Positions 18,227-47,776 of a DNA stretch of 64,000 nt are shown piece by piece; within the stretch, counting starts at the first letter, position 1, and each line of letters opens with the position of its first letter. The DNA comes from Bacteroidales bacterium (GTDB lineage Bacteria; Bacteroidota; Bacteroidia; Bacteroidales; UBA3663). The notes beneath the pieces were generated by a model. It saw only the letters and a program-made list of their open reading frames with translations, was not told the origin of the DNA and searched no databases. The stretch spans positions 97,630-161,629 of the forward strand of contig JAZQOF010000036.1 in the NCBI GenBank assembly GCA_045627785.1, written 5' to 3'. The position numbers were made by a program, and so were the translations under genes.

Positions 18227-18229
18227 AAG

Positions 18230-28462: not shown

Positions 28463-28463
28463 G

Positions 28464-29915
28464 ATGATTATTTTAATTGAGCTCATATTATCAGCGTTAT
28501 TTACATTATATTCGGTAAAATGGATATATCTTAAGATTTTGAAAATTGCAAAAATCAAAGATATTGTTGATAATCCCAATGTAAGGAAGCTACAGAAAAC
28601 TCCAATGCCGGTATTGGGAGGTTTAGTAGTATTTTTTGGTTTGCTGATGGGATTGATGTTGTTCTATGCATTAACATCAGGAGAATATACAATTTCGAGT
28701 ACATTGATAATTGGAGCTGGTGTGTTGCTGTTCTTTGGAGCTATGGATGACATACTCAATCTCACTCCAAAGTCAAGAATCATAATAGAAATTGTAACTA
28801 TACTTGGCTTAATATTTGGAAGTGGAATGTGTATTGATTCATTATATGGATTATGGGGAATTTATAATTTCTCTTGGTGGATCGCTGTTCCTTTGACCGT
28901 ATTTGCAGGAGTGGGCATTATTAATGCTTATAATATGATAGATGGCGTTAATGGATTGTCTTCTGGTATATGTATATGTTGCAGTTTCTTTTATGCAATT
29001 ATCTTTTTGAACCAATCGGATTATTCTGCATGTGCTTTGGCTATATGTTTTGGCTCCGCTTTGTTCCCGTTTTTCCTTCATAATGTGTTCGGAAATCGAA
29101 GCAGAATGTATATAGGAGATAGTGGCACAATGGTTATGGGTCTCTTTGTTACATGGTTTTCTATTCAATTCTTATCATCAACCAATCGTGAATATTTAAT
29201 GGTCAACGATTCGTTAAATACGGGTGTAGGAGTTGTGGCTTTGGTACTTAGCATTGCATCTGTTCCTGTCGCCGACGCAATTCGAGTCATGTCTTTCAGA
29301 ATAATTCGTGGAAAGAGCCCGTTTGTCGGAGATAAAACGCATTTGCATCATATCTTTATTGCTTATGGTTTTAGTCATTTATTCACAACAATTAGCGAAA
29401 TCTTTATAAATATTGTAATTATTATTATCTGGTATGGCACCTACAAATTAGGTATGTCTGTCGATAATCAGTTATATATAACAATATTATCTTCAATGAT
29501 TTTTGTATGGGGTACATATTGTTGTTTATTGTATCATTCACGAAAACGAACCAGTTTTTATTTATCATTAAAAGCGATAGCACCAAGCACTCATTTCGGT
29601 CATAAAAAATGGTGGCTACGTTACCAGAGATATTTAGATCGTCATGCATTTGAAGATTATCGATTAATAATTGTCAACCGATATAATAAATCGATTGATG
29701 AATTGACTAAGATAGAGTGTTTTGAATCTTCAATTGTAAATTATTTACAAGGACGAAATTCTCTCAAATTGTCAGAATTGAGAGATGAAGGACTGATTGA
29801 AGATGAATACTTTGATATTGTAATTGAATCACTGGTAAAAAAGAATATTTTACAATGTACTCAGACTGATAAGAATGGTGAGATAGTTAAGATTGGTATT
29901 GGATCAATTTTATAG
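28464..29915 (+). CDS. wecA: Undecaprenyl-phosphate HexNAc-1-phosphate transferase (WecA/MraY family) with C-terminal extension
   Basis: DNPNVRKLQKTPMPVLGG, DD, NAYNMIDGVNGL, YIGDSG, DKTHLHH. Confidence 0.9.
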   Translation: MIILIELILSALFTLYSVKWIYLKILKIAKIKDIVDNPNVRKLQKTPMPVLGGLVVFFGLLMGLMLFYALTSGEYTISSTLIIGAGVLLFFGAMDDILNLTPKSRIIIEIVTILGLIFGSGMCIDSLYGLWGIYNFSWWIAVPLTVFAGVGIINAYNMIDGVNGLSSGICICCSFFYAIIFLNQSDYSACALAICFGSALFPFFLHNVFGNRSRMYIGDSGTMVMGLFVTWFSIQFLSSTNREYLMVNDSLNTGVGVVALVLSIASVPVADAIRVMSFRIIRGKSPFVGDKTHLHHIFIAYGFSHLFTTISEIFINIVIIIIWYGTYKLGMSVDNQLYITILSSMIFVWGTYCCLLYHSRKRTSFYLSLKAIAPSTHFGHKKWWLRYQRYLDRHAFEDYRLIIVNRYNKSIDELTKIECFESSIVNYLQGRNSLKLSELRDEGLIEDEYFDIVIESLVKKNILQCTQTDKNGEIVKIGIGSIL

Positions 29916-29924
29916 ATTTGGCAA

Positions 29925-30992
29925 ATGGCATTTTTTTGTATAAATAATGTAAAGGTAATAGGCATTTCTGCTTGCGTACCTTCAAAAATTGAAAATATTG
30001 AAGATTATCCTTTATTTAACGAGGTAGAAAAGCAACGAATGTTACCATTTTTCGGGTTGTCGAAACATCGTGTGGTTGATGAAAAAACTACACCTTCTGA
30101 TTTGTGCTATGCAGCGGCAGAAAAACTATTGGAAGAGTGTAAGTGGAGTAAAGAGTCAATTGATATTCTTGTATATGTATCTTCTACTCCAGACTATATT
30201 TTTCCTTCAACCTGCTGTGTTTTACACGACCGATTAGGATTAAAACAGGATTGTGCCGCTTTTGACATTCCATTTGGATGCTCTGGGTGGATATATGGAT
30301 TGACTGTTATTTGTAATTTGCTGTCTTCAGGAACGATAAAACGAGGACTCCTTTTAGTCGGAGATACTCCTTCAAGAGCAGCTTCAAAAGAAGATAAGTC
30401 TGTATATCCATTTTTCGGAGACGCAGGCTCAGCAACGGCAATTGAATATGAACCAGGTGCATTCGGTTTACGCGCGGAATTAGGTACGATCGGTTCTGGC
30501 TACGATAAAATAATAATGCCAGATGGGGGTATGAGAAATCCGGTGACAGAAGACAGTTTGGTTGTAAAAGAATTTGAATCTGGAGTAAAACGTTGCAATT
30601 TGAATACTCATATAGATGGCGTGGATGTTTTTGCATTATCTACAAAATTGGATCCAGTAAGCATAAGAACAGTGTTGGAAAAAGCCAATATTTCTATTGA
30701 CGATGTCGATTGTTTCGCATTTCATCAAACCAATAAATTTTTAAGTGAGAGAGTAAGGAAGATTTTGAAGTTGGCCCCAGAGAAAGTGCCGTATTCATTG
30801 GAAAATTTTTCTAATACAAGTGCAGCTTCAATTCCTTTGACCTTAGTCACCGAAAGAAGAGACCTGCTTGTGTCTACACGCATGAGAATTGTTGGATGTG
30901 CACTTGGTGTTGGACTGTCTTTGGGTGCATGTTATTTGGAAACAGATAAAATAATTGTCCCATCACTTGTAGAATATAACAATACAAAATAA
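29925..30992 (+). CDS. 3-oxoacyl-ACP synthase III (FabH-like)
   Basis: Catalytic triad motifs GCSG, FHQTN and NTSAASIP; FGDAGSA. Confidence 0.9.
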   Translation: MAFFCINNVKVIGISACVPSKIENIEDYPLFNEVEKQRMLPFFGLSKHRVVDEKTTPSDLCYAAAEKLLEECKWSKESIDILVYVSSTPDYIFPSTCCVLHDRLGLKQDCAAFDIPFGCSGWIYGLTVICNLLSSGTIKRGLLLVGDTPSRAASKEDKSVYPFFGDAGSATAIEYEPGAFGLRAELGTIGSGYDKIIMPDGGMRNPVTEDSLVVKEFESGVKRCNLNTHIDGVDVFALSTKLDPVSIRTVLEKANISIDDVDCFAFHQTNKFLSERVRKILKLAPEKVPYSLENFSNTSAASIPLTLVTERRDLLVSTRMRIVGCALGVGLSLGACYLETDKIIVPSLVEYNNTK

Positions 30993-30997
30993 TAGAT

Positions 30998-31237
30998 ATG
31001 ACAAATTTAGAAAAGTACGCAAAGGTTTTTTGTGAAACCTTGGAAATTAGTGAAGAGAAACTTGCAAACTTGCAGTATCAAGACGTTGAATTGTGGGATT
31101 CCGTGGGTCATATGACTCTCATAGCAAACTTGGAAGAGGAGTTTGATATCATGTTTGAGACAGACGATATTATTGACCTTTCTTCTTATGAGAAGGGTAT
31201 GGAGATATTGACAAAAAACTACAAGATAGCATTTTAA
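30998..31237 (+). CDS. Acyl carrier protein 1
   Basis: 79 aa, acidic, WDSVGHM phosphopantetheine site. Confidence 0.9.
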   Translation: MTNLEKYAKVFCETLEISEEKLANLQYQDVELWDSVGHMTLIANLEEEFDIMFETDDIIDLSSYEKGMEILTKNYKIAF

Positions 31238-31238
31238 G

Positions 31239-32000
31239 ATGTTGTTTCAAGGCAAGAACGCAATTATTACTGGAGCAAGAACAGGTATTGGCTTGGCTTG
31301 TGTCCGACGATTCTCTGAAGAAGGAGCAAATATTTGGGCCATTATTCATAGAGAAGATCAAGCTTTTTTGCAGGAAATTGTTGATTTAGCTTCAAAATAT
31401 AATACTTGGATTAAGCCGGTATACATTGATTTGTCAGATAGAGAAGCCATAAAAACAGGTATTCAAGCTATTGTAAAAGAAAAACTCTCAATTGATATTC
31501 TTGTTAATGCAGCTGGCGTAGTTTCGCCTAACAATCTCATTCAAATGACTAGTTTGGATGTGATGCATAAAGTAATGGACATGAATTTCTTCTCAGTTGT
31601 TCAAATATGTCAATTGGTGTCCCGAATGATGTGTAAGCAAAAGTCGGGTTCTATAGTCAATGTCGGTTCAATAGCGGGATTAGATGGAGACTTGGCCCAA
31701 ATGGAGTATGCTGCCAGTAAGGCAGCTTTGATTTGTGCCACCAAAAAGATGGCATACGAATGGGGACAATATGGCATTCGTGTTAACGCTGTTGCTCCAG
31801 GATTAACTGGAACTAAAATGCTGGATGGAATGGCTCAATCTGATGTCGAGTTTATGGTCGAGAATAATCCCCTTCGACGTCAAGCAATTCCAGCAGAGAT
31901 TGCCGATTGCATTTGTTTTTTATCAAGCGATCAGGCTTCTTATATTACCTCTCAAGTAATCCGCATTGATGGCGGAGGTTATAAATTACATTTGAAATAA
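31239..32000 (+). CDS. SDR oxidoreductase (FabG-like)
   Basis: TGARTGIG, NAAG, YAASK, IRVNAVAPG, DGG. Confidence 0.92.
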   Translation: MLFQGKNAIITGARTGIGLACVRRFSEEGANIWAIIHREDQAFLQEIVDLASKYNTWIKPVYIDLSDREAIKTGIQAIVKEKLSIDILVNAAGVVSPNNLIQMTSLDVMHKVMDMNFFSVVQICQLVSRMMCKQKSGSIVNVGSIAGLDGDLAQMEYAASKAALICATKKMAYEWGQYGIRVNAVAPGLTGTKMLDGMAQSDVEFMVENNPLRRQAIPAEIADCICFLSSDQASYITSQVIRIDGGGYKLHLK

Positions 32001-32015
32001 TAATATAAAAGCAAT

Positions 32016-32951
32016 ATGAAAAAGAAATTAAATTTAAAGAGTATCCAAAAGATGAAACAGGACAAGGTGCCTCTTTCATGGATTACTGCATATGATTTGC
32101 CATTTGCAAGTGCTGCCGAGAATGCCGGAATTGATATGATTCTGGTAGGTGATTCTGGTGGTATGGTTCAGTTGGGTTACGAAACAACGAATCCTGTTAC
32201 AATGGATGAAATGTTATTGATGGCCAAATCTGCTCGTAGAGGTGCTCCAAACACCTTCATCGTTGGCGATATGCCACAAGGATCGTATGAAATCAGCGCA
32301 GAAAAGGCTGTTGAAAATGCAATGCGATTTGTTAAAGAGGCAGGAAGTGATGCCATTAAACTCGAAGGTGGAAGGAGAGTCATTGATAAAGTTAAGGCAA
32401 TAGTCGATGCTGGTATTTTGGTTATTGGACATTTAGGACTAACTCCACAATCAACAAGTTCTTTCGGGGGATATAATGTGCAAGGTAAAACTCTTAAAAG
32501 TTTCGATGAAACAATGGAAGATGCATTAGCATTACAAGAGGCAGGAGTAATGGCATTATTGCTTGAAGCTATGCCGGCAGAACCAGCTGCACAGATTGCA
32601 CAACGGTTAGATATTCCTGTTTTTGGAATTGGTACAGGAAATATGATGGATGGTCAGTTAATTATTATGCATGATATGTTAGGGTTCTATCAGTCATTCC
32701 GTCCTTGGTTCGCAAAGTGTTATGTGCCAGAAGTTATTGATAAATTTGCAAGTCAGCTTAAAGAAGTTGATGATATGAAGCAATTTGGCCGCGAGCATCG
32801 TAAGGACGGATTGTTTGCTATAGCAGAGATGGCAATTGCCAAATATATTGAAGAGGTAAAGAGCCGTCAGTTCCCAAGTGAAGAATATACATATCCTATT
32901 AAGGAAGAACAGCTCGCTGATGTAAAACAATCTAAATATTGGATGGCATGA
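32016..32951 (+). CDS. panB: 3-methyl-2-oxobutanoate hydroxymethyltransferase (PanB family)
   Basis: ITAYD, LVGDS, GDMP, KLEGG, GHLGLTPQ, GIG.G...DGQ. Confidence 0.9.
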   Translation: MKKKLNLKSIQKMKQDKVPLSWITAYDLPFASAAENAGIDMILVGDSGGMVQLGYETTNPVTMDEMLLMAKSARRGAPNTFIVGDMPQGSYEISAEKAVENAMRFVKEAGSDAIKLEGGRRVIDKVKAIVDAGILVIGHLGLTPQSTSSFGGYNVQGKTLKSFDETMEDALALQEAGVMALLLEAMPAEPAAQIAQRLDIPVFGIGTGNMMDGQLIIMHDMLGFYQSFRPWFAKCYVPEVIDKFASQLKEVDDMKQFGREHRKDGLFAIAEMAIAKYIEEVKSRQFPSEEYTYPIKEEQLADVKQSKYWMA

Positions 32952-34738
32952 AACAAAGAATGGTAGATTTCCTGATGGATCGTTTGGCTAAGGCTGGTGT
33001 TGGACATGTGTTCTTCGTCCCAGGAACAGGTGATATGCATCTTACCGACGCTTTGGCTCGTTGCAAGGATATTGTTCCAGTTTCTGTTCACCACGAACAA
33101 TCTGCGGGTATGGCGGCTATCACTTACGCGAAATGTAATGAAGTTTTAGGCGCATGTGTTGTTACTACAGGGTGTGGTGGCACTAACGCTATAACAGCTT
33201 GTTTGCATGCTTGGCAAGATAATGTTCCTTGTGTTTTTATTTCAGGACAGGCTGCTCGTCATCAAACAATTCGTAATAGCAATGTGCCATTACGGCAGAA
33301 AGGGCGTCAAGAAGCAGATATTATTGCAATAGTATCTTCGATTACCAAATATGCGGTAATGATTAACGATCCGAATGAATCTGCCTTTGAGATTGATAAA
33401 GCTATTCATATTGCACAAACCGGAAGAAAAGGTCCAGTTTGGATAGATGTACCTATGGATGTACAAAGTGCAATAGTTGAAACAGATTTGATGCTACAAT
33501 TCAAAAAGCCAGAGATTTGTATTCCTGAAATAATGGAAGATCAAGTTAATGAGGTATGGAATGCTCTTTCGACCGCAAAACGCCCTGTGCTTTTGGTCGG
33601 CAATGGTGTCCGTCTTTCAAAAGGTATTCCTGCGCTTAAAACTTTTGTTGAAAAAGTCGGTTTACCTGTTGTATATTCTAGACTTGGTCATGACCTAATG
33701 GATTATGATAATCCTCTTTATATTGGCATGATTGGTATGTTGGGAGCTAATCGATCTGGTAATTTCGCTGTTCAGAATTCAGATTTGGTTATATGCTTGG
33801 GTTGTAGATTATCCATAAATACAACAAGCTATGAATACGAGAAATTCGCACGTGAAGCCAAATTGATAGTTATTGACATAGATAAAACAGAACATCTGAA
33901 GGACACTGTTAAGATTGATACGTTCATTGAGAGCGATGCAAAAGTGTTTTTGGAAAAAATGACTGAAGTTTCTTCATTGTTGCCAATTGATTCTTGGCGA
34001 GAAAAATGTTTGCATTGGAAACAAACATTCCCAGCTTGTGAGGAAAAGCGAAAACATGGTGAACACATTGACATGTTTTGGTTTATGGAAGCTTTGTCGC
34101 AAGTAATGCCAGATAATTGTGTTGTATTAAGCGATGCTGGAAATTCATATTTCATCACAACTTCAGCTATTCATGTAAAACCATCTAGGGGACAACGTTC
34201 AATCACATCTGGAGCACAAGCAGAAATGGGTTATTCTTTGCCAGCAACAATTGGTGCATCTTATGCTATTGAAGGAATTGTCGTTGGTATAAGTGGAGAC
34301 GGATCCGTCATGATGAATATTCAAGATATGGCGACTCTGGCTTATAACAATAGGAATATCAAGTTATTTATTATGAATAATAATGGATATTCAAGTATTC
34401 GACAGTTGCAGAACACAGCATTTAGAGGACGTTTGATTGGTTGTGATCCAGGTAGCGGTTTAGGAATGCCTGATTTCGGTAGAGTAGCAGAAGCCTTTGG
34501 ATTGCAATTCAAGCGTCTTGTAGGCTCGGAAAATTTGCCGGCAAAGATTGACGAGGTGCTCAAAATGGAAGGTTCTGTTGTTTGTGAGGTTATGTGTGAA
34601 CCAGAACAAGAGTTCCTTCAGGTTTCGACTGCTATGAATAGTAAACGAAGGATTGTTATGCGTCCTATTGAAGACCAGGCTCCATTTCTTGAGCGAGATG
34701 TATTCTTCAAAGAGATGATAATAACTCCGTTAGATTAA
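32948..34738 (+). CDS. ThDP-dependent enzyme, acetolactate-synthase-like
   Basis: HHEQSA, TTGCGGTN, GPVWIDVP.D, GDGS...NNNGY ThDP motif. ATG 32948 overlaps the panB stop. Confidence 0.9.
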   Translation: MKQRMVDFLMDRLAKAGVGHVFFVPGTGDMHLTDALARCKDIVPVSVHHEQSAGMAAITYAKCNEVLGACVVTTGCGGTNAITACLHAWQDNVPCVFISGQAARHQTIRNSNVPLRQKGRQEADIIAIVSSITKYAVMINDPNESAFEIDKAIHIAQTGRKGPVWIDVPMDVQSAIVETDLMLQFKKPEICIPEIMEDQVNEVWNALSTAKRPVLLVGNGVRLSKGIPALKTFVEKVGLPVVYSRLGHDLMDYDNPLYIGMIGMLGANRSGNFAVQNSDLVICLGCRLSINTTSYEYEKFAREAKLIVIDIDKTEHLKDTVKIDTFIESDAKVFLEKMTEVSSLLPIDSWREKCLHWKQTFPACEEKRKHGEHIDMFWFMEALSQVMPDNCVVLSDAGNSYFITTSAIHVKPSRGQRSITSGAQAEMGYSLPATIGASYAIEGIVVGISGDGSVMMNIQDMATLAYNNRNIKLFIMNNNGYSSIRQLQNTAFRGRLIGCDPGSGLGMPDFGRVAEAFGLQFKRLVGSENLPAKIDEVLKMEGSVVCEVMCEPEQEFLQVSTAMNSKRRIVMRPIEDQAPFLERDVFFKEMIITPLD

Positions 34739-34752
34739 GTTCTCTGAAGCAA

Positions 34753-36150
34753 ATGGTATTCAACCTATCCCAATTCGGCACTAATATAGCAGTTGTTACA
34801 GAGCAAGGTCAAAAACTTAGCTATAAAGAATTGCTCTCATTGGTAGACCAAATAGGTGCAGGATTGCGAAAAAATACTCTTTCTTTTTGCTTATGTCATA
34901 ATAGTATAGGTTCTCTTGTCGGATATTTGGCATTCCTCGAATTTGGCATTCCTACGGTAATGCTGGATGGTGACAAATCAAAGGATTTGATAGATTCTTT
35001 GATAAATGTTTACCATCCTCATTACATTTGGTTGCCAACCGAACGGAAACAAGATTTCTCGGGGAACGTGATTGAAGAAATTGAAGGGTATTCTATGATA
35101 GAGTGTAATTTCCCTTCTTATGATATTGAACCTTCTGTTGCCTTACTTCTTACAACATCTGGTTCGACAGGTTCTCCCAAATTAGTTAGGCTTACAACAA
35201 AGAATTTATTAAGTAACGCAGAATCCATAGCAGAATTTTTACAGATTGATGAAGATGAACGACCTATCACGTCGTTGCCGATGTATTATAGTTATGGTCT
35301 TTCTGTTATTAATAGTCATCTTTTGAAAGGAGCCACATTACTTCTTACAGATAGAACCGTTATCCAGAAGGAGTTTTGGTCATTCGCAAAAGAAGCAGAA
35401 GCGACAAGCATTTCTGGTGTTCCTTATACATATGAAATGCTGCGTCGGCTTCGGATATTCCGTATGGATCTTCCAAAGCTAAAAACAATGACACAAGCTG
35501 GAGGAAAATTGAACGCAGGTATAGTAGAAGAGTATATAAAAAATGCTAATGCGGTTGGTAAGCGGTTCATTGTGATGTATGGTCAGACCGAAGCAACTGC
35601 TCGTATGAGTTACTTGCCAGAAAAGTGGGCTATAGAGAAATATTCAAGTATTGGTATTGCAATTCCTGGTGGAAAGTTTTCTTTGATTGACGCTGATGGT
35701 CGTGTCATTACAGAGCCAAATGTCGATGGCGAGTTGATTTACGAAGGCGCAAATGTCTCGATGGGCTATGCAGAAAGCATAAATGATCTTGCCAAAGATG
35801 ACGAAAATCATGGCATATTGCATACAGGCGATATTGCTCGTATGGATGCAGATGGTTTTTACTATATTACAGGTCGCTTGAAACGATTCGTAAAAGTTTG
35901 GGGCAATCGCTGTAATCTTGATGCTACAGAACAATTGTTGAAAGGCATAACAACAAACTGTGCGTGTGTCGGCGTAGATGATAAGATAACGATCTTTGTG
36001 ACTACAGAAGGTCTTGATGGTGATATTAAAACGTTACTCGCAGAAAAGATGGGATTAAATACTCGTGCGTTTGAAGTGAGAATTATTTCTGAGATTCCTA
36101 AAAATTCAAGCGGTAAAGTGCAATATGCAGAATTGCAAAAAATGTTGTAA
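34753..36150 (+). CDS. AMP-dependent acyl ligase (ANL family)
   Basis: TTSGSTGSPK, YGQTE, TGD, GR.KR, PKNSSGK. Confidence 0.93.
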   Translation: MVFNLSQFGTNIAVVTEQGQKLSYKELLSLVDQIGAGLRKNTLSFCLCHNSIGSLVGYLAFLEFGIPTVMLDGDKSKDLIDSLINVYHPHYIWLPTERKQDFSGNVIEEIEGYSMIECNFPSYDIEPSVALLLTTSGSTGSPKLVRLTTKNLLSNAESIAEFLQIDEDERPITSLPMYYSYGLSVINSHLLKGATLLLTDRTVIQKEFWSFAKEAEATSISGVPYTYEMLRRLRIFRMDLPKLKTMTQAGGKLNAGIVEEYIKNANAVGKRFIVMYGQTEATARMSYLPEKWAIEKYSSIGIAIPGGKFSLIDADGRVITEPNVDGELIYEGANVSMGYAESINDLAKDDENHGILHTGDIARMDADGFYYITGRLKRFVKVWGNRCNLDATEQLLKGITTNCACVGVDDKITIFVTTEGLDGDIKTLLAEKMGLNTRAFEVRIISEIPKNSSGKVQYAELQKML

Positions 36151-36195
36151 CAAGAGAATAATTCATGTCTCATTTGAAGAAGATAATAGACCCCT

Positions 36196-37281
36196 ATGAC
36201 ATTAGATGAGATACTAAATATCAATCCATATTCATTGAGCAAGGAAGAGAAACAACAAATGCTCAACGAAAGATTACAGGAGTTAACTCGACATCATTAT
36301 GCAGAGTGCCCAGAATATAGGCGTATGATGGACGCTATTGGATTGGATATAGATAATTTGCTGGGATATGAAGATTTGCCTTTTTTGACAGTACGTTTAT
36401 TCAAAGAGTTTGAGTTACGTAGTTGCAAGAAAGAAGACATAGTAAAGACTCTTACTTCTTCTGGTACTACAGGTCAGCAGGTTTCACGAATCTTCCTCGA
36501 TCGCGAAGCATCATCAAATCAGACAAAGTGTTTGACTAAGATTGTTTCTCATTTTCTCGGTACAAAACGAGTGCCAATGTTGATACTTGATTCAAGTGCG
36601 GTTGTTAAGAACAGAGCAATGTTCTCTGCTCGAGGAGCTGGAATTCTGGGCTTTTCAATGTTTGGAAGTAAGAGACAGTATGCTCTGAATGAAGATATGG
36701 AGCTTGATATTGAAGGAATGAAGACTTTCCTCGATGAACATAAAGGAGAACCAATATTTATGTTTGGCTTCACTTTCATGGTATGGCAGCATTTTTATAA
36801 GAAACTGCTAGAGTGCGGCTACAAACCAGATTTGTCGAAAGGGGTGCTTATTCATGGAGGAGGCTGGAAAAAGCTCGTGTCTGAACAAGTATCGCCTTCA
36901 AAATTCAAGGATTGTTTGAACAATGTTTGTGGCATATCTCCAGAAAATGTACACGACTATTATGGTATGGTCGAACAGACTGGCACAATCTATATGGAAT
37001 GTAAGTGCGGGCATCTGCATACATCATGTTTCAGCGATGTGTTGGTTCGTAATCCAAAGGATTGGTCACTTTGCAAGGCCGGAGAAAAAGGCCTGATTGA
37101 AGTCGTGAGTGTATTGCCAAAGAGCTACCCGGGTCATATCTTACTAACTGAAGACGAAGGTATAATTCTAGGAGAGGATGACTGCCCTTGTGGGATGAGC
37201 GGCAAATATTTTAAGATTGAAGGCAGAATAAAAAATGCCGAGATTCGAGGCTGTAGCGATACATACGCCGCAAAATTTTAA
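36196..37281 (+). CDS. LuxE-like acyl-protein synthetase
   Basis: TSSGTTGQ, HGGGWK, YGMVE, YPGHILLTED, C-terminal EIRGCS. Confidence 0.88.
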   Translation: MTLDEILNINPYSLSKEEKQQMLNERLQELTRHHYAECPEYRRMMDAIGLDIDNLLGYEDLPFLTVRLFKEFELRSCKKEDIVKTLTSSGTTGQQVSRIFLDREASSNQTKCLTKIVSHFLGTKRVPMLILDSSAVVKNRAMFSARGAGILGFSMFGSKRQYALNEDMELDIEGMKTFLDEHKGEPIFMFGFTFMVWQHFYKKLLECGYKPDLSKGVLIHGGGWKKLVSEQVSPSKFKDCLNNVCGISPENVHDYYGMVEQTGTIYMECKCGHLHTSCFSDVLVRNPKDWSLCKAGEKGLIEVVSVLPKSYPGHILLTEDEGIILGEDDCPCGMSGKYFKIEGRIKNAEIRGCSDTYAAKF

Positions 37282-37286
37282 TATTT

Positions 37287-38480
37287 ATGCCAGAATATAC
37301 ATTATTATATCCAGCGAGTGTCGATTGGGATGTATTTAAGAAAGCAAAACCTAGGCAACCGTTTGCCGAAGAGGTAATTGAATATCTTAATGCCCTTTCA
37401 GGAGCATTGCTCAAGGATAGAGCATCGCGCAACTATTCAGATGTTGTGACATTCGCTTTTTTTTGTAGAAAAGCAAATCTTTTGAAGCTTAAGGAACAAT
37501 ACACAAGAGATTCTGTCATTCGTCTTGGCAGAGGAACTCTTTTCCATATTGCACCATCGAATGTGCCAATTAATTTCGCTTATTCACTAGTGGCTGGGAT
37601 GTTGGCAGGAAACTATAATGTTGTGAGAGTATCTTCGAACGTCTTCTCTCAGGTGGACATCGTCATTAAGGTTATGCACACATTAATTGTCGATTTTCCT
37701 TCTGTTGCCAATTGTTTTGCTTTGGTTCGATATGATAGAATGAGTGATGCCACAGCATTCTTTTCTTCATTTGCAGCAAGTAGGGTAATTTGGGGAGGAG
37801 ATGAAACAATCTCAACGATTCGTAAAAACGCAATTCCTCCGCGCAGTTTCGATATTTGCTTTGCGGATCGTTATTCTATAGCTGCAATAAATCCGGAGAC
37901 AATTATGGCGGCTAAAGAAGCTGATATGAAAAAAATTGCAGAAAATTTCTACAACGACACATATTTATTCGACCAGAATGCTTGTTCTGCTCCGCATCTC
38001 ATTTTTTGGTTAAATAAAAGTGATGTTGAGGCTGCAAAGAATAAGTTTTGGCATGCTGTTTATGAGTATACAGTAACAAAATACAATCTTCCAGCAGTTT
38101 TATCAGTAGATAAGCTCACTGCTTTTTATCGTCAGGCTATTTGTATGGATTCTAAGATCGAAGCAATGCCAGATAACTATATCGTTCGTGTCGATTTAAA
38201 AGATGTACCACAAAATATCGAGAATTTTCGTTGTGCTGGAGGTTATTTTTCAGAGAAAACTATTGATTCCCTTGATGAAATATCTCCAATTATCACTAAT
38301 AAGTATCAGACACTTGCGTACTATGGTATTGAAAGATCAGAACTAAAGGATTTTGTGCAAAATAATCGTCTTTTAGGTCTTGATCGTATTGTCCCATTGG
38401 GCGAAACAACCGCATTTTCACTCACATGGGATGGTTATAATTTGATTGATACAATGAGCAGAGTGTGCTCAATTATATAA
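37287..38480 (+). CDS. LuxC-like acyl-CoA/acyl-protein reductase
   Basis: FHIAPSNVP, WGGDET, F.DRYS, DQNACSAPH (catalytic Cys), DRIVPLG, WDG. Confidence 0.88.
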   Translation: MPEYTLLYPASVDWDVFKKAKPRQPFAEEVIEYLNALSGALLKDRASRNYSDVVTFAFFCRKANLLKLKEQYTRDSVIRLGRGTLFHIAPSNVPINFAYSLVAGMLAGNYNVVRVSSNVFSQVDIVIKVMHTLIVDFPSVANCFALVRYDRMSDATAFFSSFAASRVIWGGDETISTIRKNAIPPRSFDICFADRYSIAAINPETIMAAKEADMKKIAENFYNDTYLFDQNACSAPHLIFWLNKSDVEAAKNKFWHAVYEYTVTKYNLPAVLSVDKLTAFYRQAICMDSKIEAMPDNYIVRVDLKDVPQNIENFRCAGGYFSEKTIDSLDEISPIITNKYQTLAYYGIERSELKDFVQNNRLLGLDRIVPLGETTAFSLTWDGYNLIDTMSRVCSII

Positions 38481-38491
38481 TATTTGGAATT

Positions 38492-38710
38492 ATGAATATT
38501 AAGGAAAAGATTAGAGTAATAGAGGAAACGTTAGAGGTCGATTTAAATTCTCTTAATGAAGAAACATCTCTTTCTTCTTTGGAAGAATGGAATAGCATGA
38601 CAATACTTTCTGTAATGGTTATGCTTGAAGATGATTATGAGGTTTTTGTTTCTGGAACAGATTTAAAGAACTGTAAAACTGTTGCAGATTTAGCATCTTT
38701 AATCCCTTAA
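38492..38710 (+). CDS. Acyl carrier protein 2
   Basis: 72 aa from ATG 38492, acidic, WNSM phosphopantetheine-type Ser, KTVADL. Confidence 0.82.
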   Translation: MNIKEKIRVIEETLEVDLNSLNEETSLSSLEEWNSMTILSVMVMLEDDYEVFVSGTDLKNCKTVADLASLIP

Positions 38711-38716
38711 TCAGAT

Positions 38717-39991
38717 ATGTCTTCGCAAGAGATGTATAGTCTTGTCGCAGAATTGTTCCCAATCTGTAGGTCTATTACAGGAGAGGGGACAAGACAGACA
38801 TTGCTAAGGCTTCAGCAGGAATTGCCACAAATGACAATTCACTATGTCCCGTCTGGCACACAAGTATTTGATTGGACTGTGCCAAAGGAATGGTCAATAT
38901 GCGATGCTTATATTGAGACTACTGATGGTCAAAAAATAATCGATTTTAAAGAAAATAATCTTCATGTGTTAGGTTATTCTGCACCAATTGACAAAATCGT
39001 AACAAAAAAAGAACTTTTGTCGATGGTATATACTTCTCCTGAACATCCAGATTGGATTCCATACGTTACTTCTTACTATAAGGAGAGAAGTGGCTTTTGT
39101 ATGAGTGAGAATCAAAAGAATGCCTTGAATGAAGAAAAATATCATGTTGTAATTGATTCCAAACTTTTCGATGGCAACCTTACTTATGGAGAATTGATTA
39201 TTCCAGGAGACACTGATGAAGAAATCTTCTTCTCAACCTATGTTTGTCATCCGTCAATGGCTAATAATGAATTGTCAGGCCCTGCTGTTGCGGTAGCTTT
39301 GGCAAAATATGTTCAGAGCATAGAGCATAGATATACTTATCGTTTTGTTTTTATTCCGGAAACTATTGGATCTATAACATATCTTAGCAAGAATGTTGAT
39401 TATCTCAAGAATCATGTTATTGCAGGTTTTGTATTAACATGTATAGGTGACAACAGAACTTATTCTTATATAGAATCTCCTTTTGGTGACAATTTGGCAG
39501 ACAGAGTAGCTCAAAATGTGTTGTCTTTCCATTATCCGGATTATATTCGGTATTCATTCATAGAAAGAGGTTCTGACGAGCGTCAGTATTGCTCTCCTTT
39601 GGTTAATTTGCCGATGTGCACAATTTGCAGATCTAAGTATCATGTCTATCCAGAATATCACACTTCGGCAGATGATTTGTCGCTAGTGTCGCCTGAAGGG
39701 TTAGAGGGTGCATACGAGGTCCATAGGAAATGTATTGATCTGCTTGAACTCAATCATAATTATGTGGCAGTAATTACATGCGAGCCACAATTAGGAAAAC
39801 GTGGACTTTACCCGACAATTAGTAAGCATGGAATATATAATGATGTTCGCCCTCTTCAGCATTTCTTGGCTTATGTTGATGGTAAGCATGACTTGATAGA
39901 TATCAGTAATAAAATTAAAGTGGATATTGATACACTTAAGGTGATAATTAAGAAATGTATCGATAATGGATTAGTAAAAACAGAGAAATAA
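38717..39991 (+). CDS. DUF4910 family M28-aminopeptidase-like protein
   Basis: LFPICRSITG.G.R.TL, DWTVPKEW, YVTSYY, CHPSMANNELSGP, GSDERQY, YHTSADD, C-terminal winged helix. Confidence 0.88.
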   Translation: MSSQEMYSLVAELFPICRSITGEGTRQTLLRLQQELPQMTIHYVPSGTQVFDWTVPKEWSICDAYIETTDGQKIIDFKENNLHVLGYSAPIDKIVTKKELLSMVYTSPEHPDWIPYVTSYYKERSGFCMSENQKNALNEEKYHVVIDSKLFDGNLTYGELIIPGDTDEEIFFSTYVCHPSMANNELSGPAVAVALAKYVQSIEHRYTYRFVFIPETIGSITYLSKNVDYLKNHVIAGFVLTCIGDNRTYSYIESPFGDNLADRVAQNVLSFHYPDYIRYSFIERGSDERQYCSPLVNLPMCTICRSKYHVYPEYHTSADDLSLVSPEGLEGAYEVHRKCIDLLELNHNYVAVITCEPQLGKRGLYPTISKHGIYNDVRPLQHFLAYVDGKHDLIDISNKIKVDIDTLKVIIKKCIDNGLVKTEK

Positions 39992-40000
39992 TATAGAGAT

Positions 40001-41602: not shown

Positions 41603-41620
41603 TTTTTAATATTCATATTT

Positions 41621-42655
41621 ATGAAACCTTATGTAATTGCAGAAATGGGTGTCAATTTTTATGACACAGCAAAAAACTTGAACATTACTCCTCTTGCTGC
41701 AGCAAAGATGTATATTGATGCAGCTGCTGAAGTAGGAATTGATTGTGCAAAATTCCAGTCGTATAAAGCTGGAACTATTGTGTCAAAGAATTCTCCAGCA
41801 TATTGGGATACAACAAAAGAACCGACTAAGACTCAGTATGAACTTTTCTTGAAGCATGACCATTTCGGAGAAGTAGAATATCGTGAATTATGTGATTATA
41901 CACATGCAAAGGGAATGGATTTTACATCTACTCCATTTGATTATGCATCAGCTGATTATCTGTATGATATGGTAGATTTCTATAAGATTTCTTCCTCTGA
42001 TCTTTCTAATCTCCCATTCATCCGTCATATTGGAGCAAAAGGTAAACCTGTTTATATTTCAGTAGGTGCAGCTTATCTTTCTGAGTGTGACGAAGCTATT
42101 CGCATACTTAAAGAAGAAGGCTGTAAGGATATCGTTATCTTCCATTGTGTTCTTTCATATCCAACAAATCCGAAAGATGCAAACCTTCGTGTCATTGAGA
42201 CCCTTAAGAGGACTTTCCCAGATGTCCGTGTAGGTTTCTCTGATCATGTTGCACCAGATGATACAATGATGACACTCTCTGTCGCATATATGCTTGGTGC
42301 TGAGGTAATCGAGAAACATTTTACTCTTGATAAGACTCTTCCTGGAAATGATCACTATCACGCAGGAGATCCAGAAGATTTTAAGAAAGCTATAGCAAAC
42401 TTCAAGTGGATTGATATGGTTCTTGGTAATCCGGATAAGGTCGTTTTGGATTGTGAGCAGATTCCTCGACGTGAAGCTCGCAGATCTTTGGTACTGACTC
42501 GGGACATTAAGGCAGGAGATGTATTAGCAAAAGAAGATCTCATGCCAAAACGTCCTGGAACAGGCATTTCTCCTAGATTTGAAGATATTGTTATTGGGCG
42601 TAAGGTGGTTCGCGATTTAGCAGAAGATACAATCCTTACTTGGGATATGATCTAA
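41621..42655 (+). CDS. neuB: NeuB-family nonulosonic acid synthase with SAF domain
   Basis: IAEMGVN, KFQSY, STPFD, KISS, HCVLSYP, GFSDH, IEKHFT, RRSL, KRPGTGI. Confidence 0.92.
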   Translation: MKPYVIAEMGVNFYDTAKNLNITPLAAAKMYIDAAAEVGIDCAKFQSYKAGTIVSKNSPAYWDTTKEPTKTQYELFLKHDHFGEVEYRELCDYTHAKGMDFTSTPFDYASADYLYDMVDFYKISSSDLSNLPFIRHIGAKGKPVYISVGAAYLSECDEAIRILKEEGCKDIVIFHCVLSYPTNPKDANLRVIETLKRTFPDVRVGFSDHVAPDDTMMTLSVAYMLGAEVIEKHFTLDKTLPGNDHYHAGDPEDFKKAIANFKWIDMVLGNPDKVVLDCEQIPRREARRSLVLTRDIKAGDVLAKEDLMPKRPGTGISPRFEDIVIGRKVVRDLAEDTILTWDMI

Positions 42656-42693
42656 TAACAATAGTATTTTCAGTTCCTTTTTAAGGAATCTAT

Positions 42694-44094
42694 ATGTCGA
42701 TTAATTCAATTCCGTTTCTTATTTGCTTTTTTGTATTTCTGACGATTTACTATAGTCAGCGAAATGCAAGCTCTCAGAATTGGGCTATTGCAATAGGTTC
42801 TTTACTTTTTTATTTACATGCCAATGCTGAAATGTTGCCTGTTTTGGCAATATCTACACTTATCTTTTATTTCATAGGTTTACTTATTGAAAAGAAAAAA
42901 CGATTTGTGGGTCCATATTTGATTTATGGAATAGGTATTGTTATTTTGGGTATATTTAAGTATTTTGACTTCTTTTTTGATAGCTTTAATGGTGTCTATG
43001 AGTATATTGATGAAGATATTGTAGAGATACCACATTTCCATTTGATCTTGGCATTAGGTCTAAGTTTCTATACATTCAGAATGATGTCTTATGCTTTGGA
43101 TGTTTATAATGGAAAGACAAAAGCTTGTCACGATCTTTCCCGTTTTTTTACTTATGTGAGTTTTTTTCCAGCTGTCCTTTCGGGTCCAATAGAGCGCTTT
43201 TCCAATTTTGATTCTCAGTTAGATATTCATCGAAATGTGAACTTTACGCAGATGAGAGTTGGCTTTCAGCAGATTGTTTGGGGTATGTTCAAAAAGATGG
43301 TAATAGCAGATACAGCGGAAATGTCGGTTGAATTGGTATGGAAATCTCCTGAAACGGTTTGGTCACCAATGCTGATTCTTGCTGCTTTTTTGTATAGCAT
43401 TCAGATATATTGCGATTTTTCGGGGTATAGTGATATGGCATTGGGTGTAAGTAAAATGATGGGAATAAACTTGACACCCAATTTCAAATATCCATATTTC
43501 GCTAGGAATATTCAAGAGTTTTGGCGTCGTTGGCATATTTCTTTGACATCTTGGTTTACAGATTATGTCTATATTCCCCTTGGTGGAAACAGATGCTGTA
43601 AAGCTCGAGTTTATTTTAATATCATTGTTGTCTTTGCATTGTCAGGATTATGGCATGGACAAAATATTACATATTTATATTGGGGTGTATATAATGGATT
43701 GTTAATGGTGTTTTTTGCAATTTTTGGAGCAACAAAATATAAAGATACTATTTCAAAAATAACACCGAAATCCATTTCCCAGCTTATTCTGACATTTTTA
43801 TTAGCTTCATTTGGATGGATTTTGTTCCGTTCTCCATCAATCGACGCGTTCTTCTTGTATTGTAATGGATTGGTTTCTCCAGAGCAGTGGATGATGGAAC
43901 CTATTAATATATTTGTCCATCAGCCACGTTTATTCATTTCTCTCATCCTGTTATTCTTTTTTGAGTGGAAATACAGAACTGAAGAATTTCCATTCAGCAA
44001 GAAACTCATTAATCCGTTATTCTTAGCCATTTTTTTCTGGTTTGTAATAAGCCAGCGTGGTGGCTCAATCGACTTTATCTATTATAATTTCTGA
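42694..44094 (+). CDS. MBOAT O-acyltransferase (AlgI/DltB-like)
   Basis: FKY, GLSFYTF, FFP...GPIER, DFSGYSDMA, FWRRWHISL, SGLWHG. Confidence 0.93.
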   Translation: MSINSIPFLICFFVFLTIYYSQRNASSQNWAIAIGSLLFYLHANAEMLPVLAISTLIFYFIGLLIEKKKRFVGPYLIYGIGIVILGIFKYFDFFFDSFNGVYEYIDEDIVEIPHFHLILALGLSFYTFRMMSYALDVYNGKTKACHDLSRFFTYVSFFPAVLSGPIERFSNFDSQLDIHRNVNFTQMRVGFQQIVWGMFKKMVIADTAEMSVELVWKSPETVWSPMLILAAFLYSIQIYCDFSGYSDMALGVSKMMGINLTPNFKYPYFARNIQEFWRRWHISLTSWFTDYVYIPLGGNRCCKARVYFNIIVVFALSGLWHGQNITYLYWGVYNGLLMVFFAIFGATKYKDTISKITPKSISQLILTFLLASFGWILFRSPSIDAFFLYCNGLVSPEQWMMEPINIFVHQPRLFISLILLFFFEWKYRTEEFPFSKKLINPLFLAIFFWFVISQRGGSIDFIYYNF

Positions 44095-44098
44095 TTAT

Positions 44099-44962
44099 AT
44101 GAGTTCAATTTCAAAGTACATAATTACTTTTTTGCTTTCGTTGCTTGTATTGTGTCTTGTTGTCGGAGAAACTCATTATTATATTACATATATAAAGCCG
44201 AATAAGCATTTGTTTGATACTGATAAATCAAAGCATATCTTGTTTTTAGGCGACAGCCAGTTGGAGTGTGGTATTGATGAAGCATATTTTCCCGAAGCTT
44301 TTAACCGATGTAAATCAAGCGACAGCTATTTGTTTTGTTTTGCAAAGCTTAAGGAAATGGTAAAACACAATCCGCAAATAGATACCCTTATTGTGTCTTT
44401 CAGTCATACTTCGATGTATCCAGAAGTCGATAACAGGATGCATACTGAAGGAATGGAAAAGAGGCTTTTGCTCTATTTGCCATATCTTTCGCTTGAAGAT
44501 ATAAAATGGTTTTCTTTTACTGAGATTGGAGAGAATCTTGTAAATTTTTTGTTCCCGAGTTCTCGACCGAAAGCAGAGACACGAGGAGGGTTTAATAGAC
44601 GTCCGTCAACTGAATTTTTCAAAATCCCGACATACATAGAACTTAGCGAAGATACTAAAGAATCGTTGAAGGTAAGTGAATATAAGAACGATTGTGCTAA
44701 GTTTTACTTGAGCAAAATAGAGAATTTCTGCAAGAATAATAATATAAAGCTCATTCTTTTAACGCCTCCAGTTTATAATACTAAATATCGCTCTACCTTT
44801 TGGCAGGAAGAATTAGAGAAAAATTATTCCCACTTGCCACACGTCAATTGTGAGACGATGATTTCAGATAGTCTATTTTATGACTATTCCCATCTGAACG
44901 AAGATGGAGCAAGACAGTTTAGTATTCTATTGCGGAAGTTGGTGAATAATGAAAATGATTAA
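44099..44962 (+). CDS. SGNH-like periplasmic acyl-transfer partner (AlgJ/DltD-like)
   Basis: N-terminal TM anchor from ATG 44099, FLGDSQ, and C-terminal DYSHLN (DxxH); directly after the MBOAT gene. Confidence 0.7.
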   Translation: MSSISKYIITFLLSLLVLCLVVGETHYYITYIKPNKHLFDTDKSKHILFLGDSQLECGIDEAYFPEAFNRCKSSDSYLFCFAKLKEMVKHNPQIDTLIVSFSHTSMYPEVDNRMHTEGMEKRLLLYLPYLSLEDIKWFSFTEIGENLVNFLFPSSRPKAETRGGFNRRPSTEFFKIPTYIELSEDTKESLKVSEYKNDCAKFYLSKIENFCKNNNIKLILLTPPVYNTKYRSTFWQEELEKNYSHLPHVNCETMISDSLFYDYSHLNEDGARQFSILLRKLVNNEND

Positions 44963-46951: not shown

Positions 46952-46978
46952 ATATGAATTCAATCCAAGCATAATTAT

Positions 46979-47776
46979 ATGAATATTCAAGATTTAATAC
47001 ATATATTTGAAACATTAGGCATAGGCAAAGGTGATAATGTCCTTGTTTCTTCTGATGTAATGAGGCTGCTTCAATATTTGTGTGCCGACGATAGGAAGAA
47101 ACTTCGAAGCAGTAAGGCAAAGGCTGCTATACTTGATGAAATAATTGATGGATTACAAAATCTAGTAGGAGAAGAAGGAACATTGCTCTTTCCTACATAT
47201 AATTGGGGGTTCTGCCATGGTGAAACTTTTGACTATTGTAAGACTCAGGGACTTACTGGTATGTTGTCCAATCAGGCATTGTCAAGGACCGATTTTCAGC
47301 GCACAAAGCATCCTATTTATTCCTTTGCAGTGTGGGGAAAAGGAACAAGTGAATTGATAGAATTGGAGAATGTCGAGTCTTTTTCATCAGATTCACCTTT
47401 CGCATGGTTACATAGAAATAATGGCAAAAATTTAACTATTGATGCAAGCCTTTACTTCACCTTTATGCATTATGTCGAAGAATCTTGTGGCATGACATAT
47501 AGGTATGTAAAGAATTTTACCTCACAATACATAGACAAAAATGGGGTAGAAGAAACTCGTACCTATTCAATGTATGTGAGGTATTTAGATTTGGTCGTAA
47601 CTTATGATCAGGATTTGTACGAATCCTATTTGAAAAGCTTGAATGTCATGAGAAGTGTCGATGTGCAAGATATGAATTTCGGCGTTACAGAGTTGTCGAA
47701 TGCATATCCATATTTGAAGGATGACATGATAAATAATAAGTCAGGAAATATAATAAAATCTATTGAGCGAGTATAA
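46979..47776 (+). CDS. AAC(3)-family N-acyltransferase
   Basis: LGI..GD.VLV.S, GTLLFPTY, RT.HPIYSF...G, SPF, TFMHYVEE. Confidence 0.85.
   Translation: MNIQDLIHIFETLGIGKGDNVLVSSDVMRLLQYLCADDRKKLRSSKAKAAILDEIIDGLQNLVGEEGTLLFPTYNWGFCHGETFDYCKTQGLTGMLSNQALSRTDFQRTKHPIYSFAVWGKGTSELIELENVESFSSDSPFAWLHRNNGKNLTIDASLYFTFMHYVEESCGMTYRYVKNFTSQYIDKNGVEETRTYSMYVRYLDLVVTYDQDLYESYLKSLNVMRSVDVQDMNFGVTELSNAYPYLKDDMINNKSGNIIKSIERV

Follow-up and report, generated by a model that had tools for sequence, protein, structure and literature searches.

A recurrent acyl-carrier gene block with YerE-like and PanB-like enzymes in a polysaccharide locus of a gut Bacteroidales genome

Introduction

What does a polysaccharide locus build when it sets a hydroxymethyltransferase of the pantothenate type and a carboligase of the sugar-branching type among genes that load and reduce acyl groups on carrier proteins? 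The question is raised by ten genes at positions 29925-39991 of the window, that is, the stretch of 64,000 nt analysed here (contig JAZQOF010000036.1, 97,630-161,629 of the forward strand), within which all coordinates below are given. The window belongs to a Bacteroidales bacterium (GCA_045627785.1) whose genome is 90% complete and in 50 contigs, of which C27, C38 and C47 are also mentioned. An initial annotation had read the ten genes, from a FabH-like synthase to a DUF4910 protein, as one acyl-building cassette. They are instead a composite, in which the recurrent unit is a block of seven genes, from the first acyl carrier protein (ACP) gene to luxC; FabH, the second carrier protein (ACP2) and the DUF4910 protein appear to belong with AAC(3)-like, PseF/PseG-like and NeuB genes. 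We propose, with a probability of about 0.5, that the region is a carrier-protein line whose product is an acyl group or side chain, branched and polyhydroxylated, destined either for the polymer or for a sugar of the nonulosonic-acid type.

For comparison, loci L002-L018 and L039-L067 were fetched using the thiamine diphosphate (ThDP) enzyme of the block as bait, L040 and L041 being metagenome loci, and L105, L108, L109 and L110 are DUF4910 loci from other genomes of the order.

The seven-gene block

The block occupies 30998-38480 and consists of the following genes:

30998..31237, + strand, ACP1, a divergent acyl carrier protein of 79 aa with a WDS motif
31239..32000, + strand, FabG-like short-chain dehydrogenase (SDR), 253 aa; adh_short_C2, 187.9 bits
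32016..32951, + strand, PanB-like 2-oxo-acid hydroxymethyltransferase, 311 aa, with an altered, extended C-terminus; Pantoate_transf, 314.7 bits
32939..34738, + strand, YerE-like ThDP carboligase, 599 aa from a TTG start with an ATG three codons in; three TPP domains
34753..36150, + strand, AMP-forming ligase, 465 aa; AMP-binding, 146.8 bits
36196..37281, + strand, LuxE-type acyl-protein synthetase, 361 aa; Pfam LuxE, 205.2 bits
37287..38480, + strand, LuxC-type acyl reductase, 397 aa; Pfam LuxC, 88.2 bits, with the Cys of QNACSAP

The same seven genes, in the same order and at 58-89% identity, are present in metagenome contig L040, while ACP1, SDR, ThDP enzyme, AMP ligase, LuxE and LuxC also occur together in L041 and L012. 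By gene family and order, the block is the ACP-FabG-AMP ligase-LuxE-LuxC module known from flagellin glycosylation islands of Aeromonas and enterobacteria, into which two genes have been inserted. All five families lie in the window in island order on one strand, and they are not contiguous, as PanB and the ThDP enzyme are placed between SDR and AMP ligase, both here and in L040. The slot between reductase and ligase is occupied by a ThDP gene and an aminotransferase in L012, and by a ThDP gene and a metallo-beta-lactamase-fold protein in L041.

According to previous studies, group II flagellin glycosylation islands of 98 Aeromonas strains carry ACP, 3-oxoacyl-ACP reductase, AMP-dependent synthetase, LuxE and LuxC beside pse genes (PMC7874193), and islands of Enterobacteriaceae hold the same five families (PMC4875605). 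In these papers the function of the module is left unassigned, and a "liposugar" is suggested. The window shares with them the five families and their order, and PseF-like, PseG-like and NeuB-family genes, all below their equivalog cut-offs, lie nearby, whereas it adds PanB and the ThDP enzyme between reductase and ligase and FabH in front, and is a polysaccharide locus in a non-flagellated Bacteroidales lineage. The analogy with tetronate synthesis drawn in the initial annotation thus pointed in the right direction, since the ACP, AMP ligase, LuxE and LuxC set matches the flagellin-island module (PMC7874193, PMC4875605). In A. piscicola AH-3, which has the plain module, a pseudaminic-acid derivative of 376.14 Da and an unknown 102-Da moiety were reported (PMC7874193). 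By our own arithmetic, a C4H6O3 acyl group weighs 102.03 Da and, swapped for one acetyl group of a Pse5Ac7Ac residue, gives 376.15 Da. The AH-3 masses would therefore fit a dihydroxybutanoyl (tetronate-like) group or an isomeric O-methylglyceroyl group, a reading not claimed in PMC7874193. The 102-Da moiety could be the product of the plain five-gene module.

A plain second copy of the module is present in another polysaccharide locus of the same genome, on contig C38 (L068, about 8614-13565, - strand), where an SDR, a 76-aa ACP, an AMP-binding protein and an 825-aa LuxE-LuxC fusion are followed by an aldo-keto reductase, a pyruvyl transferase and glycosyltransferases. In Vibrio cholerae O1, the tetronate genes rfbKLMNO, with a carrier protein, an adenylating enzyme and a LuxC/LuxE-like reductase, were proposed to make the hydroxy-acyl group of an amino sugar. 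The ACP, AMP ligase, LuxE and LuxC set of the window presumably matches these genes, by description and not by sequence; the V. cholerae set has an iron alcohol dehydrogenase in place of an SDR, and is without FabH, PanB, ThDP enzyme and second ACP.

Each member of the module has orthologues in the related loci. ACP1 reaches 18.0 bits to the PP-binding profile (cut-off 20.8), with no Pfam match at E<=0.001 in the first scan; its WDS motif aligns with the WDS of the PF00550 ACP on C38, and orthologues 66-77% identical stand beside the same enzymes in L012, L040 and L041. The SDR (TIGR01830 211 bits, cut-off 297.75; motifs TGxxxGIG and YAASK) has orthologues of 60-65% in L040 and L041. The AMP ligase, which carries TSGSTGSPK and a C-terminal GK and stays below the cut-offs of the 25 best among its 95 matched NCBIfam families, has orthologues of 51-60% in L012, L040 and L041, as LuxE has of 61-80%; those of LuxC are 40-58% identical, LuxC being fused to LuxE in L041 and on C38.

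The ten genes at 29925-39991 are + strand open reading frames (ORFs) with intergenic gaps of -16 to +45 nt, so that they are indeed contiguous and closely spaced as initially described, and they sit within a co-directional run of about 30 genes (21553-58234; maximum gap 207 nt). The catalytic motifs, which the initial annotation called intact, are indeed all seen in the translations of the cassette genes. Nine of the ten products are above Pfam cut-offs, and the exception, ACP1, has the WDS motif and orthologues. In NCBIfam PanB alone reaches a cut-off, while FabH, SDR, ThDP enzyme, ligase, LuxE and LuxC fall far below the nearest equivalogs; these six can be called family members by sequence, with function not assigned.

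Co-occurrence by mosaic assembly, one of the refuting cases named in the initial annotation, does not apply: a 48.5-kb contig assembled from a run of another study covers 28001-48000 with 94 differing letters, so the gene arrangement is not an assembly artefact, and the block recurs in L040. At least half of the block's sampled words were found in 18 runs, four from study P1, which may be the source sample, and 14 from seven further studies. Contigs of an RNA library (a metatranscriptome), at 100% identity, join ACP1, SDR and PanB (30980-32396) and PanB, ThDP enzyme and ligase (32375-34909). With gaps of at most 45 nt and these bridging contigs, the cassette reads as a single operon. Neither promoters nor terminators were predicted more often than in shuffled sequence: a promoter scan gave 90 sites against 80.2 +/- 9.4 in shuffles, using a sigma-70 consensus unsuited to Bacteroidota, and a terminator scan gave 12 sites against 10.6 +/- 3.6, every terminator-like site being intragenic. 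Total GC is 0.37-0.40 in the cassette (0.35 and 0.30 in the short ACP genes) and 0.33-0.36 in the glycosyltransferase genes. GC3 in the cassette is 0.27-0.43 by gene (0.27-0.38 without the 240-nt ACP1), like the flanks, and base composition was dropped as a sign of transfer because GC3 is alike in both.

The ThDP enzyme

The ThDP enzyme possesses Pfam TPP_enzyme_N, M and C domains, the Glu of HEQ and the GDGS...NNNGY motif. Its best solved relative, 8rph (386.8 bits), is JanthE, a YerE-like carboligase (PMC12188165), while other solved chains, mostly acetolactate synthases and glyoxylate carboligases, reach at most 242.4 bits. Of its 54 matched NCBIfam families, the 25 best, largely acetolactate synthases, all have cut-offs that it fails to reach, and a separate IlvB, 28-30% identical to it, is encoded on contig C27. 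Its sequence places the enzyme with the YerE-like carboligases and not with the acetolactate synthases.

No match above 40% identity was found when 401 genomes of the order were searched with this enzyme. Six genomes of the order (L020-L025) carry ThDP enzymes of the YerE side at 36-39% identity, which make up a group apart, and cassette genes were not seen within their 1.5-kb flanks. Scans of genome and metagenome collections yielded 17 and 29 loci, respectively. Homologues at 43-51% identity are mostly found among genes for a sugar-1-phosphate nucleotidyltransferase, a 4,6-dehydratase, an E1-type 3-dehydrase of about 445 aa and a YerF-like reductase, in some loci also with an E3-type reductase; such a CDP-sugar gene setting is where YerE and ErwE act (PMC9306805).

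A FastTree phylogeny was built from 59 rows, leaving out three near-duplicates, one 27% match and matches aligned over fewer than 480 residues. A split with support 100 sets 16 acetolactate-synthase rows apart from the other 43, which include the window enzyme; there it forms, with the enzymes of L040, L041 and L012, a clade of four rows (100), all from ACP/LuxE/LuxC loci. This clade is sister (92) to 25 rows, 24 of which adjoin PanB or a class I/II aminotransferase and most of which also carry genes of the CDP-3,6-dideoxyhexose pathway. The YerE analogy of the initial annotation thus also pointed in the right direction, as JanthE is the closest solved chain and the tree places the enzyme among homologues from CDP-3,6-dideoxyhexose loci.

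The four loci of the clade are exactly those with ACP1, SDR, AMP ligase, LuxE and LuxC and without CDP-sugar genes. Genes for a CDP-4-keto-3,6-dideoxyhexose acceptor were absent from the window, and CDP-sugar acceptor genes were absent from L012, L040 and L041; moreover, when the 90%-complete genome was searched by tblastn for E1, E3, the cytidylyltransferase and the 4,6-dehydratase, nothing that could pass as an orthologue with confidence turned up. That the ThDP enzymes of the ACP-context loci form a clade of their own argues for a function tied to the module. As a side observation, L041 (2392-8926, of rumen-type metagenome origin) carries two YerE-like genes, without CDP-sugar genes within 10 kb: the upstream one stands with ErwI/ErwJ-like aldolase and acetaldehyde dehydrogenase genes, an HpcH aldolase and a FabH-ACP-SDR trio, and the other lies within the ACP/ligase/LuxE-LuxC module.

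The PanB-like gene and donor supply

The PanB-like protein passes the cut-offs of TIGR00222 (282.4 against 207.55) and NF001452 (308.3 against 272). It matches positions 2-234 of the 259 of the Pantoate_transf profile and then continues into an unrelated long extension, and it is 89% identical to its L040 copy. It is the sole PanB of the genome, in which PanC (PF02569) was not found at 90% completeness; PanB occurs in three of 36 genomes of the same genus, all three matching the full profile. Compared with E. coli PanB (1m3u, 200.6 bits), the GDS, DxP, KxEGG and E-x-x-P motifs align, whereas profile positions 235-259 are unmatched, a long C-terminal extension is present and no PanC partner was found. 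An IQ-TREE phylogeny of 36 rows, from which one partial and one duplicate row were left out, puts 12 ThDP-adjacent PanBs on one side (94/93) and 24 housekeeping PanBs of the order on the other, with the window protein in a clade of six (100/100) that also holds L040, three metagenome loci and a genome of Bryobacteraceae (Acidobacteriota). Twenty alignment columns separate the window clade from the 24 housekeeping PanBs, some of them beside metal-binding motifs. A substrate call from these columns was rejected as unjustified, since E. coli PanB also departs from the Bacteroidales consensus at such positions. By its clade and the lacking PanC, PanB seems dedicated to the locus and not a housekeeping enzyme, which agrees with its assignment to the acyl line in the initial annotation.

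It might be argued that PanB and the ThDP enzyme are ordinary genes of pantothenate and branched-chain-amino-acid synthesis, placed in the locus by chance, as PanB passes its cut-offs and has no second copy in the genome, and the best NCBIfam matches of the ThDP enzyme are acetolactate synthases. However, PanC was not found, a separate IlvB is present, the ThDP enzyme stays below the cut-offs of those matches and closer to JanthE, both proteins lie outside the housekeeping clades, and the same pair occupies the same slot in L040. We regard such a coincidence as very improbable.

A different role is suggested by the neighbours of the ThDP genes in the 32 loci where this enzyme shows 41% or more identity across no less than 60% of its length:

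PanB, same strand, within 925 nt: 13 of 32 loci
class I/II aminotransferase, same strand, within 42 nt: 14 of 32 loci
both PanB and aminotransferase: 0 of 32 loci
neither: 5 of 32 loci, four of them short or truncated contigs

Both of the two aminotransferases that were scanned resemble aspartate aminotransferases. PanB and the aspartate-aminotransferase-like genes thus look like two alternative suppliers of a 2-oxo-acid donor. This pattern agrees with what Steitz et al. (2022) proposed for YerE-like enzymes, namely that their donors are functionalised 2-oxo acids which an aldolase or a transaminase provides (PMC9306805). As well, ketopantoate hydroxymethyltransferase (KPHMT) adds formaldehyde to various 2-oxo acids (PMC7611260, PMC10127515). 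The window shares with the YerE and ErwE pathways (PMC9306805) the enzyme subclass, by score and tree, and the logic of a 2-oxo-acid supplier beside the carboligase with a reductase nearby. In those pathways, however, the supplier is a pyruvate aldolase (ErwI/BphI or HpaI type) or a transaminase, whereas here it would be a PanB-type hydroxymethyltransferase, and the window is without CDP-4-keto-3,6-dideoxyhexose genes, the carboligase lying inside an ACP/AMP ligase/LuxE/LuxC module. The available main text of PMC9306805 makes no mention of a supplier of the PanB type, and an in-silico survey of more than 200 YerE-like clusters, cited in PMC12247030, may already list PanB neighbours.

Proposed pathway

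We suggest that the PanB-like enzyme hydroxymethylates a 2-oxo acid, such as pyruvate, 2-oxobutanoate or 2-oxoisovalerate, and so supplies a gamma-hydroxy-2-oxo acid. The YerE-like enzyme would decarboxylate this donor and add the acyl-anion equivalent to a carbonyl acceptor, which would not be a CDP-ketosugar but rather an aldehyde from LuxE and LuxC, LuxC being the presumed aldehyde producer, or a keto-acyl group on ACP1. The new ketone, an acyloin, would be reduced by the FabG-like SDR, which could equally act as ketoreductase for a 3-oxoacyl intermediate, and the AMP ligase would load the carboxylate end onto a carrier protein, before a transferase passes the acyl group to an amino sugar or polymer. 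The "hydroxymethylated acyl group" and "higher sugar" of the initial annotation remain conjectural. That annotation could map the gene combination to no described pathway; the donor logic is partly covered by the published scheme (PMC9306805). Our literature search, which covered PanB with acetolactate synthase and glycosylation islands, tetronate/RfbN, YerE with PanB, ACP or LuxC, and LuxE/LuxC with nonulosonic acids, found no product assigned to such gene combinations.

Several points weigh against this proposal. We infer every substrate, the order of the steps and the final acceptor from what is observed, namely the gene families, motifs and clades, the recurrence of the block and the missing pantothenate and CDP-sugar partners. 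The reversed polarity is equally possible, with the 2-oxo acid as acceptor as in acetolactate synthases, in which case the carboxylate would be kept for the ligase. With no part played by the ThDP enzyme, PanB and SDR could by themselves make a 2,4-dihydroxy acid resembling pantoate or tetronate. Our choice of acceptor follows from absences in a 90%-complete genome of 50 contigs. To our knowledge, YerE-like enzymes have been shown to be physiologically active on CDP-ketosugars only. Moreover, JanthE, the closest characterised relative, has no known physiological substrate (PMC12188165). The ThDP phylogeny was made with FastTree only. The ThDP-adjacent PanBs are a biased sample, since the ThDP enzyme was the bait for all of them, and a single order supplied the housekeeping PanBs, so the split between them is safe only for the position of the window protein itself. 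Near-duplicate loci (L048/L049, L002/L045, L057/L058) make the neighbour counts overstate independence. Finally, the RNA-library contigs may derive from contaminating DNA, and, with GC3 equal in cassette and flanks, composition is silent on a separate origin of the block.

The flanking module and transfer genes

The remaining three genes of the ten, and the genes that would use or transfer the product, are as follows:

29925..30992, + strand, FabH-like ketoacyl synthase (KAS) III, 355 aa; Pfam ACP_syn_III and ACP_syn_III_C
38465..38710, + strand, ACP2; PP-binding, 31.5 bits; probable start ATG 38492; Ser in WNSM
38717..39991, + strand, CA_C2195-family protein, 424 aa; DUF4910 344.2, DUF2172 118.4 and HTH_47 70.7 bits
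40001..41602, + strand, fusion of a PseF-like cytidylyltransferase and a PseG-like part, 533 aa; TIGR03584 103.1 and TIGR03590 87.6 bits, both below cut-off
41621..42655, + strand, NeuB-family synthase with SAF domain, 344 aa; Pfam NeuB, 237.5 bits
42694..44094, + strand, MBOAT, a DltB-like membrane acyltransferase; Pfam MBOAT; TIGR04091 173.9 bits, cut-off 375
44057..44962, + strand, membrane-anchored SGNH-like protein with GDS and DxxH motifs; weak SGNH match (E 0.011), below cut-off
46979..47776, + strand, AAC(3)-like N-acyltransferase, 265 aa; Antibiotic_NAT, 84.2 bits
55473..56456, + strand, Acyl_transf_3 (AT3) membrane acyltransferase by Pfam; 30% identity to the L041 copy

The FabH-like protein has the condensing triad, Cys118 (GCSG), His267 (HQTN) and Asn297 (SNTSAAS), and lies below all NCBIfam FabH cut-offs (best equivalog 204.5 against 436). 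Its relatives are 46% identical in L041 and 33-34% in the DUF4910 loci L105 and L108. It could be either a condensing enzyme that makes 3-oxoacyl-ACP or an ACP-dependent acyltransferase.

The DUF4910 protein scores 387.5 bits to CA_C2195 (PDB 3k9t), whose zinc ligands are His189, Asp195 and His324 and whose family was proposed, from gene neighbourhoods, to act in modified-sugar synthesis (PMC4000134). In the window protein His189 and His324 align, while Asp195 aligns with an Asn, with a Glu adjacent. The domains and the neighbours, namely NeuB/SpsE, a cytidylyltransferase, ACP and N-acyltransferases, are those of that family (PMC4000134); the window differs in the ACP gene 6 nt upstream and in the Asn aligned with Asp195. 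Within the order, DUF4910 is present in 10 of 301 genomes, the window genome included. Among the other nine loci, an AAC(3)-like gene lies directly or one gene upstream in four (L105, L108, L109 and L110), a PF00550 ACP at most three genes upstream in three, FabH in two, NeuB downstream in two and an MBOAT within 8 kb in two; the order in L105 is ACP, FabH, AAC(3)-like, DUF4910, PseG-like with GNAT, NeuB. In the window, unlike in those four loci, the AAC(3)-like gene is 7 kb downstream of DUF4910. Most likely, FabH, ACP2 and DUF4910 belong with the AAC(3)-like, PseF/PseG-like and NeuB genes, and the seven-gene block sits inside this second recurrent module.

Such a composite make-up also allows the enzymes to be read as independent modules in one operon. 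FabH, ACP1 and SDR would then make a simple 3-hydroxyacyl group, e.g. 3-hydroxybutanoyl, the AMP ligase, LuxE, LuxC and ACP a tetronate-like omega-hydroxy acyl group from a dicarboxylic acid, and PanB with the ThDP enzyme would act in the manner of YerE and ErwE, branching a keto-sugar nucleotide whose synthesis is encoded in another part of the genome. The full triad of FabH agrees with this, as do the recurrence of FabH, ACP and DUF4910 without the LuxE/LuxC set in L105 and L108, the five-gene module without PanB or ThDP enzyme on C38 and in Aeromonas (PMC7874193), and PanB-ThDP pairs without ACP in the CDP-sugar loci L006, L043 and L047. However, PanB and the ThDP enzyme lie inside the five-gene module, in the SDR/AMP ligase slot, in the window as well as in L040, the four ACP-context loci have ThDP enzymes that group in a separate clade, and no YerE-type keto-sugar-nucleotide pathway was found in the genome. 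We therefore consider separate functions possible but rather unlikely, and the single carrier-protein line is followed below.

The PseF/PseG-like fusion is part of the nonulosonic-acid portion of the locus. The NeuB-family synthase is below both equivalogs (NeuB 271.9 against 399.65; PseI 209.1 against 340.25), and neither a NeuC-type epimerase (PF02350) nor a convincing PseB-type dehydratase was found in the 90%-complete genome; with a sub-threshold synthase and without these partners, the aldose substrate is not evident. It is conceivable that the line builds the sugar itself, a 3-deoxy-2-ulosonic acid made from non-carbohydrate precursors on carrier proteins. The aldehyde from LuxC and a PanB-made C3-C5 unit would be joined by the YerE-like carboligase and reduced by the SDR to a polyhydroxy aldehyde, which the divergent NeuB-family synthase would condense with phosphoenolpyruvate before the fused cytidylyltransferase activates the product. 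We hold this to be distinctly unlikely. In a milder version, a carrier-bound or free acyl-derived carbonyl, and not a nucleotide sugar, would be the physiological acceptor of a YerE-type enzyme, which would be the first such case.

Under the acyl-building proposal, the transferase may be the AAC(3)-like protein, a candidate acyl-ACP-dependent amino-sugar N-acyltransferase, the MBOAT, a candidate exit route for the carrier-bound acyl group with the SGNH-like protein as its possible partner, the AT3 protein, FabH or the DUF4910 protein. A route resembling that of Dlt has also been considered. In it, ACP2 or ACP1 would receive a small acid or amino acid from the ligase, and esterification of the polysaccharide would follow outside the cytoplasmic membrane through the MBOAT and its SGNH-like neighbour, with the remaining enzymes only tailoring the loaded acid. 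DltB is the sole NCBIfam match of the MBOAT (173.9 bits), DltA is among the matches of the AMP ligase (104.3 bits), the ORF after the MBOAT combines an N-terminal membrane anchor with the motifs GDS and DxxH, and MBOATs recur near DUF4910 in the two loci mentioned above. Yet the Dlt equivalog cut-offs (375 for DltB, 559.85 for DltA) are far above these scores, the DltD-like ORF matches SGNH at only the E value listed above, and in L012, L040 and L041 an AT3-family acyltransferase, not an MBOAT, stands at most two genes downstream of LuxC. As an account of the whole region this route is unlikely; it concerns the transfer step only and is compatible with the carrier-protein line.

Surroundings of the locus

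The initial annotation placed the genes between wecA and neuA, which is approximately right: the gene directly upstream is a GT4/WecA-like transferase (137 bits against a cut-off of 326), while downstream the sub-threshold PseF/PseG-like fusion stands instead of neuA. Upstream of the cassette lie two DUF6057/PD40 pairs, a flippase, five glycosyltransferases and the WecA-like GT4. Further upstream in the window, SusC/SusD pairs and a GH10 xylanase indicate a Bacteroidota genome. Downstream, a first group comprises the PseF-like/PseG-like fusion, the NeuB-family synthase, the DltB-like MBOAT, the ORF with SGNH-like motifs and a CptA-like phosphoethanolamine transferase, and a second group the AAC(3)-like acyltransferase, two CotH kinases, a GT2, the AT3 acyltransferase and a phytase-like protein.

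Some of these genes deserve mention in their own right. In each of the two tandem pairs directly upstream of the flippase (14990-21333), a DUF6057 membrane protein is accompanied by a beta-propeller protein of the PD40/WD40-like kind. On the other side of the flippase, an ORF of 503 aa (22965-24476) has a sub-threshold Capsule_synth match (KpsC/KpsS-type, 18.6 against 20 bits) and is possibly an ulosonic-acid transferase. Two CotH-kinase-family proteins and DUF4988 proteins lie inside the polysaccharide operon at 47776-53393, and a third CotH, on contig C47 (L069, 7654-9573), adjoins a DegT aminotransferase with 67% identity to its counterpart after LuxC in L040.

Biological significance

The finding is a new combination of known kinds of gene, of interest to glycobiologists and ThDP enzymologists: a known, uncharacterised acyl-building set is joined to a sugar-branching-type carboligase and a seemingly repurposed vitamin-pathway enzyme in a polysaccharide operon from the gut Bacteroidales. 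Beside pseudaminic-acid genes, the ACP-FabG-ligase-LuxE-LuxC module is widespread with no product assigned, and the locus of the window joins it to a YerE-type enzyme. As the recurrent unit has six to seven genes, both open questions are testable with few purified proteins. The pattern of a PanB or an aminotransferase beside the carboligase would extend the donor-supply scheme to one-carbon-extended donors, and such supplier genes could help to predict side chains from sequence. For the gut Bacteroidales, the locus predicts a surface-glycan substituent, branched and hydroxylated, of a kind not yet described in these bacteria.

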